Below are positions 51,900-64,000 of a stretch of DNA of 64,000 bases, piece by piece. The notes under the pieces are model-generated. The model worked only from the letters and a program-made list of their open reading frames with translations. It was not told where the DNA came from and made no database searches. Position 1 is the stretch's first letter, and the number at the start of each line of letters is the position of its first letter. The stretch is from Octopus sinensis (taxonomy: Eukaryota): the NCBI RefSeq assembly GCF_006345805.1, contig NC_043008.1, positions 24,242,001-24,306,000 of the forward strand, read 5' to 3'. The position numbers and the translations under genes were made by a program.

Positions 51900-54800
51900 A
51901 GGTAGTGGGTAGCGAACTTCTTCACTACTTCAGGGAGTGACGACCCTGCCTGACACGAGTTCCGGGCTCAGCTGGCTTCGGCTGACAGTACCCGGTATTG
52001 GTTAGCTACTGCCCACCTCAAGCTGGGCAGCCCCCAGTTAATAAGGTGCTGACCCGCCACAGGCCGCCTGCTCCATTGGGTGCTTGGAGCTAAGAGTATG
52101 ACTCGAAAAGCGGCCTGCAACCTCTGCACCAGGCAAGCAACTAAAAGTCAAGAAAACACCAGTTCTGCGGTTGGCAAGCTGGAATATCTGATGATCTTCT
52201 CAAGATTGAAGACACAAGGAAAACGGCCATCATTGACCGTGAACTAAAGAGGCTCAACATAGATATTGCTGGGCTGCAGGAGACAAGACTTCCCTCAAAC
52301 GGCAAACTCAAAGAGCAGGATTTCACCTTCTTTTGGCAGGGAAGCGATCCAGAAGAACCTCGTCAACATGGCGTTGGCTTTGCAGTGAGAAACTCTTTAC
52401 TCTCCTCAATAAAACAACCATCAGGAGGCACTGAGCGTATCCTCTCACTGCGCCTCTCGACTTCTTCTGGCTCAGTACATCTACTCAGCATCTATGCTCC
52501 CACTCTCTACAGCTCAGAGGAGACCAAGGACCAGTTCTACAAAGATCTCAACTGTGTCATAGAAAATATACCAACGACTGAAAATATCTACCTTCTAGGA
52601 GATTTTAACGCTCGCGTGGGATCTGACCATGATTCGTGGCCCATTTGTGTTGGACACTTTGGTATTGGCAACATGAATGACAATGGTCAGAGACTACTCG
52701 AATTCTGCACATACCACAACCTGTGTATCACAAACACATTCTTTACCAACAAGCCATCCCACAAGGCATCCTGGAGACATCCAAGATCTCACCACTGGCA
52801 TCAGCTGGATCTCATCATTACACGGAGATCCTTTCTGAATTCTACTCTATTGACCCGCAATTACCACAGCGCGGATTGTGACACAGCCACTCACTAATTA
52901 GAAGTAGGGTGAGGATTCTGCCTAAAAAAGTCCATCGCTCCAAGAAAGTGGGCCGACCACGCATCAACATCGCCAGAACCTCGGACTCTACACTGCGAAA
53001 ATGTTTTGCTGCTTCTATCAAGGTTGCCCTCAGTAGCTGCCCAACCTCTTCTGCTGAAAGTAGGTGGGACTATATCAGGGAAGCCTTGTATACGACATCA
53101 ATAGATACTTTTGGCATGAGAGAAAGGCAAAACCCAGATTGGTTCAATGCTGGGCTCTCAGAGCTGGAGCCAATTATCGAAGCAAAGCGTGCAGCTCTGA
53201 TGCAATACAAGAGTGACTCTTCTACAAAGTCACTCGAAGAACTCAGAGAGGCACGAAATAAAACCCAACTGACAGCCAGACGCTGTGCAAACAGGTATTG
53301 GCAGGAAATCTGTAAGAGTATCCAGTCAGCTGCTGACAGGGGCGACACCCGTGGGATGTATGCCGGTTTGAAGAAGGCCCTCGGTCCATCCGCAACCAAG
53401 TCAGCCCCTCTGAAATCAACTACTGGAGATCTCATCAGGGATCAAGGCAAGCAAATGGATTGATGGGTGGAGCACTACCAGGATCTCTACTCACGGGAGA
53501 CTACAGTGGTTGAGGCTGCAGTCGAGAGTGTCAAGATCTTGCCAGTCATGTGCGAACTTGACAGTCCGCCATCTATAGCAGAGCTCACCAAGGCTGTTGA
53601 CTCCCTGGCAAGAAATAAGGCTCCGGGAAAAGACGGCATCCTCTCAGGGATCATCAAAGCCGGCAAAAACACCATCCTGCTTCGGCGCCTTCATGAGCTT
53701 CTGTGTCAGTGCTGGGAAGAGGGTACAGTCCCTCAGGATATGCGGGATGCTAACATCATTACGCTTTACAAAAGCAAAGGTGACCGTGGTGATTGTAACA
53801 AATACTGTGGTATATCCCTTCTAAGCACTGTTGGAAAGACCTTTGCCCGCGTTATCCTGGCCAGGCTACAACTACTTGCTTCTCAAATCTATCCGGAATC
53901 GCAGTGTGGCTTTAGAAGAAGCAGATCAACTATCGATATGATATTCTCCATACGCCAACTTCAGGAGAAGTCCAGAGAGCAGAAAATGCCATTATATATG
54001 GCCTTCATTGATCTAACAAAGGCTTTTGACTCGGTAAGCAGAACAGGCCTCTTCATCCTGCTCCAAAAAATCGGATGTCCACCAAAGCTGCTGAGGATCA
54101 TCAAGTCTTTCCATGATGACATGCAAGGCACCATAGAGCACAACGGTTCAACAGCAGCCGCCTTCCAAATAAAAAACAGGGTAAAGCAAGGTTGTGTCCT
54201 CGCTCCTACATTGTTTGGCATCTTCTTCTCGCTCTTACTTTCACATGCCTTTCAGACATCAGATGATGGAGTGTTTCTGCACAGTAGAAGTGACGGGAAA
54301 CTGTTCAATCTCTCGCGCCTGCGTGTCAAGACCAAAATCAGAAACGTCCTGATCAAGGAGATGTTATTTGCTGATGATGCCGCTCTCCAAACGGGCTTGG
54401 GACAACAATAAGCTGACCAAGACCGCGAAAATGTAGATCTACCAGGCATGTGTACTCAGCACTCTACTGTATGGAAGTGAGACCTGGACGCTATACACAC
54501 GCCAAGAGCGTCGCCTAAACAACTTTCACCTGCACTGCCTCTGGATAATTCTCTGCATCAAATGGCAGAATCATATCCCCAACAAAAATGTCCTCAGGCA
54601 AGCAGGAATACCAAGCATGTTTGCACTCCTCACACAAAGACGTATGAGATGGCTTGGGCATGTTAGCCGTATGAAAGATGGCAGAATCCCCAAGGACGTA
54701 CTCTACGGAGAGCTTGCTAGGGGTACTAGGTCTGTGGGTAGACCGATCTTACGTTACAAGGATGTTTGCAAAAGGGACATGAAGGCCTGCAACATCAATA

Positions 54801-55100
54801 TTAGCGGTTGGGAGGCAGTTGCTGGCAACCGTGGAGAATGGCGACGTACCGTAAAAGAGGGAATACAAAGGAGTGACAGAGAGAGAGAGAGGAGAAATGG
54901 AAAGAAAAGAACAGACGTCAACAAGAAACTATGGCATTGCAACCAGCCAGGAACAGTCTTCGCTACATTTGCGGTACCTGCCAGAGGGAGTGTTTGTCCA
55001 GGATAGGACTACACAGCCACATCAGGAAATGTATCAGGACATGAAATATAAAAGACGGACTAGACTACTTTTATGCGCAACTCCATTGTCTCCAGGGACA
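51900..55100 (+). mobile_element. Near-full-length RTE-clade LINE (APE + RT), inactivated by stops, frameshifts and a deletion after FADD
   Basis: DIAGLQETR, IYAPT, GDFNARVG, HQLDLII, KAPGKDG, PESQCGFR, FIDLTKAFDSV, KQGCVLAPTLF, LFADDAAL and RWLGHV..M.DGRIPK..LYGEL. Confidence 0.95.
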
Positions 55101-55590: not shown

Positions 55591-56790
55591 TATGTAACTA
55601 TGTACCATGTTTGTATGTATGGATGTGTATCTTTATATGTGTGGATCCGTGTCTCCATATGTGTCTGTTCTTGTAACCTATGTACCTATCCGTCTGTATG
55701 TTGATCTGTTTGTTTATTTACATATCTAAATGCTTACATACAGAAATAAAAAAAAGGCATGCATACATACTCACACCCACATACATACATACATTTATCT
55801 ATCTAACAATCCACTAGCTATTCTACTCTACCTGTGTAAACTGTGGGTATGGAGGTATGGCATTTATTGTGTATATTTCCTATGTAATATTGGAGAGGTT
55901 TCATTTATAAGAACGTACTCCCGTATTTGTCTGAGTGTTGGGTCTTTTGGGTGCTTGAATAAGACGTGGATGTCGAGTTGACCCAAGTTACCTCCATGGT
56001 GGTCTTTAGCATGTTGGTAGAGTATGGAGGACTGTTTTCTGTCGTCATATTGTCTTAGATGTTCATTTATCCGTTCCGCAATGCTCCTAGACGTCTCCCC
56101 TATGTACATCATGTTCATGTCCTTACAAGCACCTTCTATGCATCTTATGCTGTAAACTACATTTCGAGTTCTACAGTTAATACCAAGGCTAATTCTACAT
56201 ACCATGCAGTTACCATTGGTGCATATGGTATTCTTAAACGGGTACGTCCTACGTAGTTTTGATCTGACGGAGTTCCCTGGCTTTTCAATAATTTTAATGT
56301 TGAGTTTGGTCTCCTTCAGAACTTTTCTAAATCTACGGGCTAGTTCTCCATGGGCTGTGGCCTCTACAAACATCACTCCTTGATATTTGTCGGTTTTATA
56401 CGACGTGTTCGCCCTGTATGCTTTGTCACAAGTTCTTTGTATTCTATTCCATTCTTTGTTTCTATATCTAGGGCAGGTACCACTGGCATCATTACGTATA
56501 ATGTTATCTAATTTCTTTCTAGCCCCCCTGTATACAAGAACCCTATCTTTCTGATCATATTCAGAGAACTACATGCGGTGTATGAAGTTCTGTATATGTT
56601 TCTTCATTTCATAGGGTTCGCATAGTGGGGACACATTGTTCATTATTCTAACTAGGTCTGCTACTAGTATGTTAATTTTCATATTGTGTGACAAAGCTGA
56701 GTTCTTGTGAACAACATATTTTGAAGTTACAGGTTTCATTTAATTAGAGTGGAGGAGCTGCACTCTATTGTTCACATTCTCTAACCATAT
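55130..56790 (-). mobile_element. Third Penelope-like family, 3' part with GIY-YIG endonuclease and pseudo-LTR
   Basis: ORF 55864-56376 contains C....CMVC, CRTRNVVYSIRC, YIGETSRSIAERINEH, HAKDHH and RQIRE. Confidence 0.88.
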
Positions 56791-57009: not shown

Positions 57010-57522
57010 GAGAATTATAATGTTAATTATTTAGATGTTAATTTTAATCTAATTACAGGTAAAACACAACCATATCATAAATTTAATGAAAACCTTATAT
57101 ATATATATAAATGTTAATAGTAATCACCCACCATCAATTAAAAAATCGTTGATTAATAATATAAGTAAACGTATATCATTACTTTCTTATGATTTAGAGA
57201 TTTTTAATAAACATGCACCTTATTACAATGAGGCCCTACGAGAGGCAGGTTATAATAGTAATATTAAATTTTTTAATAAAAAGTAAAGATAATAATATTA
57301 ATAATAATTATAATAATCATGTTAGTCATATTAGTAGTAATTATAAAAATAAAAATTAAATTAAAGATAAGACAGATTTTAATATTAATTCAATAAATGT
57401 TAATTATAATTATAAATTTAATTTTAATAATATCATAAAGAAATATAATAATTGTAATGGTAATAATGATAATGGTAATAATAATAATAATAGTAATAAT
57501 AATGGGATTAATTATAATAATC

Positions 57523-57571
<49 letters not shown>

Positions 57572-58500
57572 GAATAAGAATAAGAATAATAATGATAGTA
57601 ATAATAATAATAAGAATAAGAATAAGAATAATATTTGGTTAATTGTTCCTTATGGTGCTCAGGTTAAAACTAACATTATTAAAGAGATTTTAGATATTAT
57701 TGAACAATTCATTCATGATAATCGTAAATAGAAAAATGTTCCTAGTAATAACTTTGGAGAAGGTTATTCTACCACTAATAGTGTAGGCAACATTATTTCT
57801 TCTTTTAACAAATTTAAGCTGAATAATTTTTATAAAAATAAATTTTATAATAATACCAATAATAATAAAGATAAGACACTCATTAACTGTACATGTAGAG
57901 ATAAAACTAAGTGTAAATTTAATAATAAATGTGATTTAAACGATGTAGTGTATAAATGTATAGTTACATCAATTAATGAGAATAATAGGAACAATAATAA
58001 CTTAAACTCAATATATATAGGGTCTACTTCCTCTAAAATAATATTAAGACTCGCGCAGCATATGTATTCATTTAAAAATAAAAACCTAATTAACTCTACA
58101 GGACTTAGCAAATACATTTGGGGGCTTAAATCCCAAAGTATTAAGTATGATTTAAGGTGGGAAATAATAAGTAAGGCCAAATCATATAGTATAGGAGGCA
58201 ATTATTGTTATTTATGTTCAAATGAGTTTAAAGAAATTTTATTCAATGATCATAATAATTTAGTGAATAATTTGGATGAGCGTAAAATAAAATGCAGACA
58301 CAGGTTACTTTACTTATATAATAAATTTCTAGATAAATAATGACTATATCTAAACTCTACTTTGTTCCTAATTTGTGGATATATGTACTAGTATTAATGT
58401 AAAATTTAGTATGTGATTTATAATACTTATTACAGGATTTTATATGTTATATCAAATAAGTAATTTAATATTTTAATAATTTTATAAATATATTACTTAA
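57010..58500 (+). mobile_element. Extremely AT-rich Penelope-like element 3' half with (AAT)n expansions
   Basis: VNYLDVNFNL, NSNHPPSIKKSL, APYYNEAL, VYKC..YIGST..RLAQH..TGLSKYIW, CYLCSNE and CRH. Homologous to 46817-47905. Confidence 0.85.
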
Positions 58501-58528
58501 GAATAGTAGTGTAGTGTTTCCAATTCTT

Positions 58529-58769
58529 TGGATTTGGTTAAAAAGAGACTATGAGCGATGGCTAGAAGAATATTGAGCTTAACTTCATAACCAGCTGATC
58601 TAGCAAGCGGGGCCTCATATCAGTGAGGGGGGGGGCGCATTGATGCCATCGAGAGGTAGGCCCCGAAACGGCGCGCATTCTCTCCTGATGACCCCATACA
58701 CTTGCTGGCTTCCAGTATACGGAGCTTTTGACTGGTAGCATTTGCATGTGCAAGTTGTTTTCAAGACAT
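58529..58769 (+). repeat. Upstream direct repeat (copy of the ORF end plus 3' UTR)
   Basis: TGGATTTGGTTAAAAAGAGAC ... GTTGTTTTCAAGACAT matches 62225-62455 with a few substitutions and a ~10-nt indel. Confidence 0.97.
58600..58708 (+). ncRNA. Permuted hammerhead-like motif, upstream copy (AUC triplet, one stem III mismatch)
   Basis: CTAGCAAG c GGGGCC ... GCCATC|GAGAG gta GGCCCC GAAACGGC gcgcatt CTCTC CTGATGA ... CTTGCTGG. Confidence 0.6.
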
Positions 58770-58799
58770 TTAAGACCTTGTGGTAGGTAACCACTGACA

Positions 58800-58895
58800 A
58801 ACCGGAAAGACGGTTAGGCATCTTGGAAAGACAAGAGGACTGCTCGGAAAGACGAGTGGACAATAGGAAAGACTATCGACATCAGGAAAGACTGG
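58800..58895 (+). promoter_or_regulatory. Array of five hairpins with an invariant G-GAAAGA-C loop in the 5' UTR
   Basis: Stems AACCG/CGGTT, TCTTG/CAAGA, CTGCTCG/CGAGTGG, ATAG/CTAT and TCAG/CTGG, each closing GAAAGA. Confidence 0.85.
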
Positions 58896-61800
58896 CGGAG
58901 GCTGCGGACTTACGATCCTCGCCTTTGTAATATATTGTAACAGAAATAAATGGAAATGACAGCCCCACGATTGACCGAGAGGGGGAAGTCGAGAATCAAT
59001 CAAACCCAGTCAGCACGGGAATGACCTTGGAAACGAATACGATTATTCATTCGAACAGCGAACGAAATGCAAACAACTTTAGATGCAAGCTGTGCTATAG
59101 AACCTTTGCAACTGTGAGAGGCTTGAAGATACATCAGGGAAAGACTTGTGAGAAGAGCACAGAGCAGTGTGGATCGTCAGATCGTAAAACACGTGGCAAA
59201 TCATCCCCGGACTCAAACCACAGCGGATCGATAAATGCTACAGCAGAGACCTCTTCACGGGATGAAACTACAAGTCATGAAACTGGTGCATCGGATAATA
59301 CTCAGAGGAAACCGAGGGTTTTGTGGCCTGCTGCTAATGAGAAAGTGAAATATAAAGAGTTTGAAAACAAGGTTTGTTGGGCTCTTTAGAAAATGACAGT
59401 GTAAATTATCAAGCTCAATATACGATATAGGAAAAGATTTATTTGGAGTAAAAGAGAATATCCGACTAGAGAAAGGAAAGTGTGGACCAAGCAGGAGGAT
59501 CAGAAAAATGCAGCAGTTGAGGAAGGAAAAGTCCAACTTAAGAAAGCGATGGAGATGTGCTGCACTAGATGAGAAACCTGGCCTTGCGCTGCTGTATAAC
59601 GATTTGAAGAGGAAATGTTGTTATGTGGAACGACATATCCGCCGATATGAGCGTCAAAAGGAGAGTAAAAGGACTCGGGGGCAATTTCTGAAGGACCCGT
59701 ACGAGTTTACTAAGAAGCTGTTCACTGAACCGAAGAGTGGTACTTTATCGTGCACAAAAGAAGAACTGGATGCTCATATCAAGGAAACCTACAGCGATCC
59801 GCACCGTAACCAGCCGCTGCCACCTCTACATGGACTAAATTATCTCTCAGGACCTGATATCGAATTCCAGATTGGGGACATCAGGGAGAGAGAGGTGAAA
59901 TACTTCTTAAGAAAAGCTAGAGCAAAGAGTGCCCCAGGAGGTGATGGCGTCTCATATAAAGTCTACAAGTACTGCAATCGTCTGCGAAAGAAGCTCTTCG
60001 TCCTACTCCGACAACTGTGGCGCGAGGAGACTATAGTAGAGGATTGGTGTAAGGCAGAAGGTATATACCTGCCGAAAGAGGCCAATGCAAAGACCATAAA
60101 ACAGTTTAGGCCGATATCCTTATTGAATGTGGGAAATTCTGTCGAGGAGAACAGTGACATATTTATAGAGTAACGGATATGTTGATGAATCTGTTCAAAA
60201 GGCCGGAATCCCCGGGATTCCTGGATGCGTTGAACTCTGTTTTTCGATTTGGAAAGCGATCCAAGACTCCAAACGGAACAGGAAAAGTCTGAACGTAGTA
60301 TGGCTCGACCTAGCTAACGCGTATGGTTCAGTGCCACACGAATTACTAATAACAGTCATGGACCACTTCTACATTCCTGACAAAGTGATCAGAATAATGA
60401 GGATGTACTATGACAGTTTCGAAATGAGGTTTACAGCTGGAGGTTTTACAACAGATTGGCACCGATTGGAGATTGGCATTGCTGCTGGCTGTACAATATA
60501 TGTCACGTGGTTTATCTTAGTCATGGAAATGATTTTGAAAGGTGTAGATTTTTCGGAACAAATCGCCCATATACAATCGCCTAAGAAAGCCTTCATGGAT
60601 GACGTGAAACCTCTAGCTACAGATAAACAAATCATGCAGAATGCCCTCTTGAGATTAGACGAACTTGTGAGGTGGTCAAGGATGCGATTTAAAGCAAATA
60701 AGTCGCGTAGTCTGACATTTGTTAAGGGAGTGCAGAAAGAATTTAAGTTTCGAATATCTGAAGAAAGCATTCCAACAGTCAAGGAAGAGCCCGTCAAGAG
60801 CTTGGGACGAGTATACGCTGGAACATTGTCAGACAGAAGTCGTGGGATTGAAATTATGAAACAGGCCGAGGCTGGGTTATCAGCGATTGATAATTCGAAG
60901 TTACCAGGTAACTATAAAATTTGGTGCTTGCAGTTCGGCTTGTACCCGCGACTTGCGTGGCCACTTTTAATATACGAGGTAGCATTGTCACGAGTTGAAA
61001 TCATAGAACAAAAATGTAATGTGTTCATTAGGAAGTGGCTAGGCCTACCTCGTATGTTGAACAGTTCAGCTCTTTATCGGAAAAGAGGTTCGTTGCAGCT
61101 ACCAATAGCATCAATAGTCGAAATATATAAGCTGGGGAAGATACGGACGGTCATGATGCTAAGAGAACCGAAGGATATGGAAATCAGGCGTAACCCACCA
61201 GAGGTGAAAACATCCAGGGAGTGGAAAGCAGAAGCAGAAACTGACGACGTCTTGTCTTCTCTTATACACAGAGATATGGTGGGTGCAACGCAGAACCATC
61301 GGAAAGGACTTGGTTTTGGCGCAGATCAGTTCAGACCGTTTGCAAGCATGATGCAGAGTGAACGCAGATCTGTTGTTAGCAACAGCGTCAAAACAAGAGA
61401 AGCAGAGAGAAGAGAGCTTCATTCGATCCGATGTTTTCATCAAGGTCAGATGACGAGATGGGAAGAACATGTTGTTGAGAGGAAGATAAGTTAGGATGAG
61501 ATGTGGAAATGGACGACATCTCGGCTGAATTTCCTGATTCGTTTATCTTATGATGTTTTGCCATCACCTACGAATCTAGTAAGATGGAATGTCTCAGAGA
61601 ATGACATCTGCAAATGTGGAAAGGTCGGTACACTGAAACATATTCTTTCCAACTGTTCATTAGCATTGAACAGGTATACACGGAGGCACAACTTGGTCCT
61701 TATGGTTATCTTCAATGCTATAAAGAACCAAATTCATCTCAACAACACAAAAAAACCGTTAAAAGTACCATCTAGAGATTTCGTTACCTTCGTGCGACCA

Positions 61801-62224
61801 GGTCAGCGGATCCGTTTCAAGAAGATCAAGAAACTTCCTGAGAGAAATGAAAAGTGGAACGGCTATTGGGAGGTAACTGCAGATTTACCTGGGTGCCAAG
61901 TTTTCTTTCCCATCCCAGTTACGAAAAAACCAGATATTTTGATGTGCTGTGAAAGAAAGAGAGTTGTAAATATAGTCGAGCTAACGGTTCCTCAAGAAGA
62001 TAATATGGACGCCGCTCGGGCTCGAAAATTGAACCGTTAATATAAACCTCCTCGAGGAATGTCAAGACGCAGGCTGGAAAACGGAACGTTTTCCAATCCA
62101 AGTCGGATGTAAAGGGTTCGTTGGACACCGTGTGAGACGACCGTTGTTATCGCTAGGCCTAACTCATCGTAAAGTCAATACCACCATGACTGATATCCAA
62201 TCTACAGTGGAGAAGGCTAGCCAC

Positions 62225-62455
62225 TGGATTTGGTTAAAAAGAGACAATGAGCGATGGCTAGAAGAATATTGAACTTAAATTCATAACCAGCTGATCCAGC
62301 AAGCGGGGCCTCATATCGGGGCGCATTGATGCCGTCGAGAGGTAGGCCCCGAAACGGCGCGCATTCTCTCCTGATGACCCAATACACTTGCTGGCTTCCG
62401 GTATACGGAGCTTTTGACTGGTAGCACTTGCATGTGCAAGTTGTTTTCAAGACAT
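62225..62455 (+). repeat. Downstream direct repeat
   Basis: Matches 58529-58769. Confidence 0.97.
62296..62394 (+). ncRNA. Permuted hammerhead-like motif, downstream copy with intact core
   Basis: CCAGCAAG c GGGGCC ... GCCGTC|GAGAG gta GGCCCC GAAACGGC gcgcatt CTCTC CTGATGA cccaataca CTTGCTGG. Confidence 0.7.
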
Positions 62456-64000
62456 CGACATATGAGGTTTTGTATTAGTCAATAAAAGTTATAAAATATT
62501 TTTTATTTACTTAAAGTTAGGTTATATTTAGATGTTTATTATATTACTAAATATTTAATGGTTTTAATGAATATAGATTATATGAAGGTTTTAATTTTGA
62601 ATGTATAGGACAATAATCTTTTCTTTATGTAATGTTTTTTAAAATGATAATTTATTCAATTATAGAACGATGTATTTGATCTATAGATAAATTAATTTAC
62701 CTATATAAGTAGTTTAATTTATTATTTTGAGTATTAATATGATATGATATATAATATAAATATATATTTATCTTATACTAGAGTTAAGTTTATATTTTGT
62801 TATAGTTTTGTTATAAATTTGTTAAATTAATCAATTTATATGTATTTTCTATATATTTGAAGTAGATTTATTTAGATGTTTATTTAATTAATATTATTTA
62901 ATGAACGTTATTAGAATATAGTTTTTTATATTAATTTTGTTCATATTAAAGATAATGCTTGAATTACTACTGAATTAATTTTGAATGTGTCTAATGGTTA
63001 TTTTTTAATTTTTTATTTATATTAATTTGTCTACTACGTAATTTTTTTATATAAATTAATTAAATCTTATATGATTTTTAGAGTATACACAGTAATTGGT
63101 AGTTATATTAATTATTTAATATTGAGTATTAAGTATAATTTATTGTAGTTATTTTAATAATAAATCTTATAGTATATAGTGGTTTTATTCTATAATCGTG
63201 ACTTCATTCTATTTACATTTATTGATAAATATAGCTGTTTCCATTGACAATATTTATTCACAATTTTCATTGATAAAATATATTCGTAGTTTTTCATTGT
63301 TAAAAGAATTCTTCATCTATTTATTCTATTTCTGTTAATAACGTAATTCCACGAGTATTCTTATAAACGCTTAAAATACGTTTTCCGTTTTAAAAGTTTA
63401 CTTCATCATACAGCCTTGGAAAGCTAAGTAATCTATTTCTATTTAAGATTTTAAAATTTAAAAGTTTTAAAATATTTTAATAAGTCTTATTGTATTTGAT
63501 TGTTATGTAATGATTTAGTTGTTGAAATTATGTATATAATTATGAGATTTTAACTCTACATTATTTGTAAGATATTACTTAGCCAAAGATATATATATAG
63601 ATCGTTAATAGTTATACGATTTTTTAAAAGTTAGGTTTCTGGTTTATAGTTTGATTTTAATCTTTAATTTTTTAATGTATCTCATAATTATATTATATTA
63701 ATATTTAATATTCATGTAATTAGTATTGGATTAATTAATTAATTTATTTTTCTTTATATGTCTATACATTTATTGATAGCGTAAATTTTAGTTTTTAATC
63801 ACTATATTTGTTGATAGTAATTTAGTCATTATTTTTAAATATTTTATAATTATTACATGTGTACTTAAATCTAAAATATGAATAATGACTATTTAGTTAA
63901 ATAATTTGGTAATTCAATGTTTGGACTATAACTGAGTTAAGGATATTTGGGAGTTTATTATGTTTTTTTAAGCCATATTATATATACATATATATTCATA
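62456..64000. other. Extremely AT-rich low-complexity tract, possibly the continuation of the PLE 3' region split by the HERO insertion
   Basis: Composition matches 58340-58528; no ORFs in the track. Confidence 0.45.

Follow-up and report, generated by a model that had tools for sequence, protein, structure and literature searches.

A hammerhead-like motif in the terminal repeats of an R2-related retrotransposon family of Octopus sinensis points to a probable circular RNA template

Introduction

Non-LTR (long terminal repeat) retrotransposons are defined by priming of reverse transcription at the 3' end of a linear RNA, and the linear template of R2 is primed at its 3' end in this way. Here we describe a family of R2-related non-LTR elements found in a stretch of 64,000 nucleotides (nt) of the genome of Octopus sinensis (contig NC_043008.1, positions 24,242,001 to 24,306,000 of the forward strand, assembly GCF_006345805.1), referred to below as the window. 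Judging from sequence features, the family probably replicates through circular RNA, and its 3' untranslated region (UTR) holds a conserved hammerhead-like motif predicted to self-cleave. The original prediction, made for the single copy in the window, had proposed ribozyme-bearing terminal repeats of the Penelope and retrozyme kind and a circular RNA cycle. The feature is real and family-wide, with the logic of Penelope-like elements and retrozymes present in an R2-type element.

The Penelope-like elements carry hammerheads in their pseudo-LTRs, and the available text of Cervera and de la Pena (2014, PMC4209133) proposes for them, without demonstrating it, a cycle of cleavage, ligation and more-than-unit reverse transcription. 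They have in common with the octopus family the partial-tandem structure with variable redundancy, the hammerhead in the repeated end and the proposed cycle. However, the octopus family has an R2-like reverse transcriptase (RT) and a restriction-like endonuclease (RLE), with the GIY-YIG motif in 0/35 proteins, and its RNA motif is complete, pseudoknotted and of S-G-C order, whereas that of Penelope is a minimal type I hammerhead that needs a dimer. In retrozymes the hammerhead-cleaved monomers are circularised, likely by RtcB, which closes animal retrozyme monomers in vitro, and circles have been demonstrated for the animal retrozymes; these are non-coding, 170-400 nt long in animals, with type I or III motifs (available text of PMC7229834). 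The octopus family, in contrast, has a coding unit of 3.7 kb of autonomous type (RT-RLE) and an apparently fixed internal priming site, and falls outside the retrozyme class.

As to the RNA motif, type-SGC hammerheads have been found in metatranscriptomes and in no genome of a known organism, and the available part of the paper mentions no retrotransposon link (Eckert et al. 2023, PMC10085705). The same part treats CUGAnGA and its stem II strand as an unbreakable block. The motif of the family resembles the type-SGC described there in the S-G-C order, the short linker between stems I and II and the extra helix tying the other strands of I and II. It differs in that the stem II strand lies upstream and helices IV and V stand between A9 and G10.1, so that there is no intact block C. 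Hammerheads with additional helices have been reported (PMC13725137, available text). Finally, R2, R4, NeSL, Hero and CRE share with the family the single open reading frame (ORF) coding for zinc finger, RT, zinc knuckle and RLE, the 5' truncations and the fixed 3' end. R2 itself has a 5' ribozyme similar to that of hepatitis delta virus (HDV), which makes a linear template (PMC6765202, available text); in the octopus family the motif precedes the priming point and belongs to the 3' UTR, insertions have neither a ribosomal DNA (rDNA) site nor a tail, and copies exceed one unit.

Results and Discussion

The terminally redundant copy of the window

The copy in the window appears as a GC-richer insertion of 3.9 kb in AT-rich DNA, occupying positions 58529..62460 (all features are on the plus strand unless stated otherwise) and about 1.06 units long. 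It splits a host repeat, and in 11/11 other copies of this repeat (loci not including the window itself, fetched for the right flank) the flanks 58528 and 62461 are joined exactly, with nothing between them, the text being ...CCAATTCTT followed directly by TATGAGG.... The insertion is therefore exactly 58529-62460, with no target deletion and no target-site duplication (TSD), none having been visible before from the window alone. The same joint recurs in contigs of the sequencing run X15. Local alignment of the insertion recovered one repeat pair, 58529..58769 and 62225..62455, with 231 aligned nt, 8 substitutions, one indel of 10 nt and a spacing of 3686/3696, so the terminal duplication described before is real. 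Both repeats contain the last codons (WIWLKRD...), the stop and the entire 3' UTR; the 5' one passes into the 5' UTR at 58769/58770 and the 3' one stops, with no tail, at the fixed 3' end of the family. A misassembly is disfavoured because the empty sites join exactly and the two repeats differ. The five extra nt at 62456..62460 copy the terminal bases of the element and likely come from abortive priming.

Both repeats of each copy longer than one unit come from one template lineage. In 12 loci the two repeats agree at 111 of the 114 columns of common subfamily polymorphism, against 65.5 expected (0/5000 permutations), and at 93/96 when the near-identical L042 is left out. In the same loci 30 rare variants are common to both repeats, versus 2.0 expected, and when 228 tests are corrected for, none of the columns tells 5' repeats from 3' ones. 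With one template lineage per locus, a chance tandem insertion is excluded as the origin of these pairs.

Ends and junctions across the genome

Copies of the repeat are numerous (at least 2412 first-look candidates). All 59 loci examined (58 fetched and that of the window) have the same fixed 3' end at AGACAT, within 1 nt and with no tail, which is 119 nt beyond the predicted cut. The original prediction had expected starts and ends to vary around the repeat; actually only the 5' end varies, the long copies showing graded 5' truncation. No copy examined had a tail and a clear TSD was found in 1/57: candidates of at least 8 nt appeared in 8/57, versus 20/300 control pairs, and the only clear non-repetitive duplication was that of L054. 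The first base of the 3' flank was C in 31/57 (15% background) and the flank started with CTA in 17/57 (1.7% expected), as the 5' UTR also does; the 57 flanks result from dropping L006 (a duplicate) and L022 (without a free 3' end). This bias fits priming inside an RNA that continues.

The unit junction, where the 5' UTR follows directly on the element's 3' end (58764..58777 in the window), would be the internal priming point, as suggested by the indel-free junctions and by 3' flanks resembling the continuation. Besides the window copy, 5/5 copies extending to the beginning of the 5' UTR run on through the junction into 3'-end sequence, and thus no full-length copies with fixed tails, TSDs and no redundancy, as a chance tandem insertion would imply, were found among them. 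A search for the junction added 32 loci, and there was no indel in the 22-nt junction text of the 40 junction copies compared. The proportion of junction copies does not reflect their frequency in the genome, as these loci were selected for the junction. After collapsing 13 segmental duplicates of L022 and L072, removing L022 and adding L056, there were 25 independent junction copies, in which the redundancy went from 2 to about 985 nt; 7 of the 5' ends stop short of the cut, none lies within 5 nt of it and 18 go past it. Redundancy of at least about 175 nt, enough for two full motifs, was found in 12/25 values, L022 counted. In the same way, 0/30 loci picked by the last 119 nt (several overlapping earlier loci) start at the cut, and 80 of the 85 copies reaching it have no gap there. 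The 3' UTR is joined to the 5' UTR in distant relatives as well: 17 contigs had direct repeats more than 1.5 kb apart, of which 15 fit one element unit (L104 and L144 are other cases) and the one of L167 reached 1680 nt.

Foreign DNA upstream of the element is shared by L018, L021, the L022 group and L175, and we considered transduction of linear uncleaved RNA. However, this DNA is the end of an L1/Tx1-like LINE (long interspersed element), in several lengths at one site, and we therefore read it as repeated insertion; for this reason L022 was removed from the redundancy count. The LINE end lies at about 62103-62105 of the element in L018, L021, the L022 group, L065, L268, L285 and L287, with lengths of about 280, 1290, 1420, 1690 and more nt; in L287 the target appears to be duplicated. 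At other places GGATG often comes after this end, and it may belong to a site-preferring LINE that parasitises the R2-like element. Copies with two ends and an internal deletion were also seen (L070, L071, L073, L076, L077, L078, L081, L083, L087). In five of them about 59500 is fused to about 62050-62100, at breakpoints that vary; the resulting units, about 1.1 kb long, retain the ribozyme motif and the junction and could be non-autonomous minicircle derivatives. A cluster of segmental duplications that all carry the same rearranged copy of the element was found at G000:C18, 3.8-5.2 Mb.

Layout of the hammerhead-like motif

The boxes follow the order cleavage site, GAAA, CUGAnGA, that is, the type-SGC or non-circular order, which was present in 37/38 descriptor matches and rules out hammerheads of types I, II and III (block orders CGS, GSC and SCG). 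The earlier view of a ribozyme of the Penelope or retrozyme type was thus not borne out, given this order, the displaced stem II and two extra helices. Read from 5' to 3', the motif has a strand of helix IV, hairpin V, a strand of stem II, one of the I-II helix and one of stem III, and then UH and the cut. After the cut come a strand of stem I, a short linker, the stem II partner, GAAA, the partners of III, I-II and I, and at the 3' end CUGAnGA and the partner of IV. Helices IV and V are thus located between A9 and G10.1, and the stem II strand is supplied from upstream and not directly after CUGAnGA. Rfam gave 0 matches in the window at the gathering score, because the block order is not canonical. 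HDV-like, twister and minus-strand hammerhead readings were dropped after comparison by eye with the consensus.

In the window repeats the boxes are GUC or AUC, GAAAC and CUGAUGA, and the cuts are predicted after 58650 and 62336, as had been proposed. The 5' motif (58600..58708, from boxes and pairing, helices named by analogy with relatives) comprises IV (58600-58612/58692-58708), V (58613-58628), stem II (58629-58632/58661-58664), the I-II helix (58633-58638/58673-58678), III with one mismatch (58645-58649/58668-58672), I (58651-58656/58679-58684), GAAA (58665-58668) and CUGAUGA (58685-58691). It is damaged by an A-C mismatch in stem III adjoining the core and by a shortened stem II. In the 3' motif (62296..62394) both hairpin V and the stem II strand normally used are gone, and there is an alternative stem II of 7 base pairs (bp) at 62305-62311/62344-62350. 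Hence, of a hammerhead in each repeat, boxes and predicted cuts stood up but neither motif is undamaged. Besides, the ORF is broken into five pieces and the window copy is dead; therefore its 3686-nt monomer, put forward before, is not an active unit.

Both boxes and stems I and III are kept in 46 of the 63 motif copies of this genome, and in intact copies the motif very probably acts as a working ribozyme. The deletion of hairpin V and the usual stem II strand is recurrent (L001, L004, L015, L022, L023, L024). In these copies an upstream G run can pair as the 7-bp alternative stem II, possibly as a natural switch or a simpler variant. L180 has tandem partial repeats of a 164-nt stretch that end just past the GAAA box.

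Conservation and covariation in relatives

We collected 80 metagenome loci by protein alone (32-68% identity), 45 of which held an ORF end (47 ends). GAAA and then CUGAnGA appeared behind 33/47 ends. Among the 14 without the motif, 4 had sequence for less than 150 nt. The remaining 10 include L170, where the sequence stops within the motif, L154, with a changed C box, and L103 and L104, which carry a motif at another place in the locus. After dropping 5 near-copies, 28 non-redundant motifs had mean helix lengths of 5.4 (I), 5.9 (III), 4.9 (displaced II), 7.3 (I-II), 8.9 (IV) and 6.6 (V), and all six were longer than the maximum of 200 box-preserving shuffles. A contiguous canonical stem II was discarded, with a mean of 0.75 bp versus 1.05 in shuffles and its first pair in 1/30.

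The same helices were found by an unguided scan of an alignment of 30 motifs made from sequence only. In this alignment double changes affect 32/34 pairs, paired cells amount to 82.6% versus 56.9% in shuffles and 36-43% in slid controls, and 0/500 shuffles showed covariation as high. The boxes are invariant in the 30 sequences, being the selection criterion; U16.1-A15.1 is present in 28/30 and G-C at the base of stem II in 25/30. The sequence features of a hammerhead are thus all present: CUGAnGA, GAAA, UH, and stems I, II and III with G10.1-C11.1. The motif is found on both sides of the deepest split in the RT tree (42 rows), with the motif-less rows scattered and weakly clustered (25/500 shuffles as low; L119, L148, L161 and L162 left out for their short RT). 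In viral contigs one narrow pattern gave 49 matches, none with stems I and III.

The protein and its family

The element is an R2-superfamily non-LTR retrotransposon of the RLE type, as classified from its sequence. In the window, piece 1 of the ORF (58931..59389) has a weak C2H2 zinc finger (Pfam zf-C2H2_4, E 0.006, under the cut-off), piece 2 (59397..60173, from the ORF list) the pre-RT region and the start of the RT, and piece 3 (60169..61494) the RT with FMDD (Pfam RVT_1, E 1.9e-11). Piece 4 (61495..62040), identified by motifs in the ORF list, contains the zinc knuckle and the RLE motif (KPD...ELTVP), and piece 5 (62033..62272), in a shifted frame, the C-terminus ...WIWLKRDNERWLEEY and the stop. 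With a 776-amino-acid frame of a natural copy as query, 744 relatives were found among 8000 candidates scored, the closest named one among them being from an octopus. The best PDB matches of a profile of 35 relatives were R2 proteins (E 2e-43, versus 1.5e-29 for LINE-1). Scored by regular expressions, the zinc knuckle was present in 33/35, the RLE in 31/35, the RT in 35/35 and GIY-YIG in 0/35 of the aligned proteins. The presence of the first three together with the absence of the last makes this an RLE non-LTR element and not a Penelope.

Other features of the RLE non-LTR elements agree: the R2-like RT, the C-terminal zinc knuckle with a PD-(D/E)xK-type endonuclease, and copies that share a fixed 3' end but are truncated to varying extents in 5'. 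The Penelope-like class (telomerase-like RT plus GIY-YIG) does not fit by domains, PDB profile or motifs. Nor does the R2 clade proper, as insertion flanks are diverse and AT-rich, with no 28S rDNA site, and a hammerhead-like motif in the 3' UTR takes the place of the 5' HDV-like ribozyme. The family may belong to the Hero clade.

A probable circular cycle and its alternatives

From the anatomy of the copies, the conservation of the motif and the common template of the repeats, we infer a cycle of transcription, cleavage, ligation by a ligase and internal priming. A copy with terminal redundancy of at least about 175 nt would be transcribed through both motifs, whose structure suggests that both would cleave and free a unit-length RNA. 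A host ligase or the ribozyme itself may then join the ends and restore the cut site. The element protein would nick the target and prime inside this RNA, at the fixed point 119 nt past the ligation site where the copies end, helped by microhomology of 1-6 nt with the continuation of the RNA. Reverse transcription would stop anywhere, in agreement with the pattern of mostly short 5'-truncated copies, and sometimes exceed a full turn, leaving two identical repeats; only such copies could seed a new circle. A monomer cleaved at both motifs would finish at the cut, yet the copies end 119 nt past it, and those longer than 119 nt read through it without scar or pile-up; a monomer closed at this point would be the simplest template. 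The circular interpretation, including more than one turn, is indirectly supported by the junction copies, the single template lineage per locus and the covarying motif across the clade.

Several observations weigh against it. Most of the data above would also follow from a strand transfer guided by homology on a linear RNA. The repeats of L043 agree at 2/4 columns only, copies with two full units or more were not found (in stretches of 10 kb only), and end repeats on short-read metagenome contigs can be assembly loops and tell no more than that there is a junction. The CTA bias might instead reflect a preference for certain targets: past 3 nt the flank match is no longer than such a preference gives, with 7/17 extending. 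The motif is missing behind the ORF of ten loci in which this region has 190 nt or more; some are truncated or degenerate, but L146, L163 and L168 look like other kinds of 3' end. The structure behind the pair counts was picked by scanning the very alignment on which the pairs were counted, and its sequences are related. In the literature we found no tested hammerhead with helices between A9 and G10.1 in S-G-C order. Separately, the motif-less L168 has an inverted repeat and a (TTTCA)n tail 3' of its ORF, a conventional end.

If strand transfer were the mechanism, similar to that of LTR elements, only the 5' motif of a linear RNA would cut. The RT would prime near the 3' end, reach the cut 5' end and jump to the homologous 119-nt stretch of the same or a sister RNA, renewing the repeat with no circle. 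Same-template repeats, seamless junctions and the fixed 3' end would all follow. R2-type RTs jump between templates (reportedly described by Bibillo and Eickbush), and the internal deletions at microhomologies show that template switching is frequent in the family. Yet two identical motifs of one transcript would have to act differently, and the excess of 5' ends expected at the cut was not seen in any of the 25 junction copies or the 30 loci; we consider this explanation unlikely. Another possibility, which we regard as quite unlikely, is that the motif is slow or gated by protein and serves translation or RNA stability. The templates would then be uncleaved read-through RNAs from partial-tandem masters, and occasional jumps from end to end at the junction, or gene conversion, would renew the redundancy. 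Indeed, any copy exceeding 119 nt derives from an RNA that was uninterrupted at the cut. In R2, L1Tc and RNA viruses, ribozymes behave like internal ribosome entry sites (PMC6765202, PMC13725137), and the known SGC ribozymes are slow, 0.007-0.19 per min (PMC10085705), according to the available texts. However, read-through alone only erodes the redundancy, yet repeats are matched in old and young subfamilies; the 40 indel-free junctions and the lack of any column distinguishing 5' from 3' repeats also speak against it. It is highly improbable that a truncated copy landed before a full one, by chance or targeting, or that the locus is misassembled, even if short 3' fragments are very common and the 3' flanks favour the CTA with which the 5' UTR starts. 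Between independent copies, agreement would be expected at about 65 of the 114 columns, whereas it was found at 111; the junction contains no target sequence, the empty site joins exactly, and the layout is the same at 25 independent loci and in distant relatives. Repeat agreement and empty sites largely refute this explanation.

On balance we lean towards the circular cycle in its broad form: a deep and widespread R2-related LINE clade would have left the linear, 3'-end-primed cycle, with a novel SGC-order hammerhead split by two helices making a coding circle, fixed internal priming, and the repeat renewed by going past one turn. As part of the same reading, and held with the same reserve, this would be a convergence on the cycle proposed for Penelope elements.

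Other features of the window

The 5' UTR contains five hairpins with a G-GAAAGA-C loop, spaced by about 20 nt (58798..58898), that could serve protein binding or translation; by the same test a comparable cluster appeared in 1/80 relatives (L098 only). The left part of the host repeat (57301..58528), which resumes at 62461, resembles a Penelope-like GIY-YIG tail, by a weak match to a Pfam GIY-YIG protein (E 2e-4). Fragments of this GIY-YIG/Penelope-like kind are located near the insertion at 55864-56568 (minus strand) and 57732-58340 (plus strand), the second being part of the host repeat. Another LINE-like ORF left a C-terminal fragment at 54437-55006 (plus strand) with no Pfam match, which we take to be RTE-like from its resemblance.

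Significance

In the full-text literature, judged from listings and the starts of abstracts, no hammerhead, terminal redundancy or circular template was described for an RLE non-LTR element; most subscription journals and the Repbase reports are outside this scope, so a prior note is possible. The hammerhead topology, with SGC order and the CUGAnGA/stem II block split by helices, is apparently undescribed. If true, this would be a hammerhead permutation of the non-circular kind that is encoded in genomes and has dozens of natural examples with covariation, and the CUGAnGA block could no longer be assumed to tolerate no interruption. The circular-template model long proposed for Penelope elements would become testable with a single R2-type protein. 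R2 proteins are under development for gene insertion, and a relative with circular templates and internal priming would be of practical interest. An R2-related clade that primes inside a circle made by a ribozyme would change the definition of non-LTR retrotransposons.

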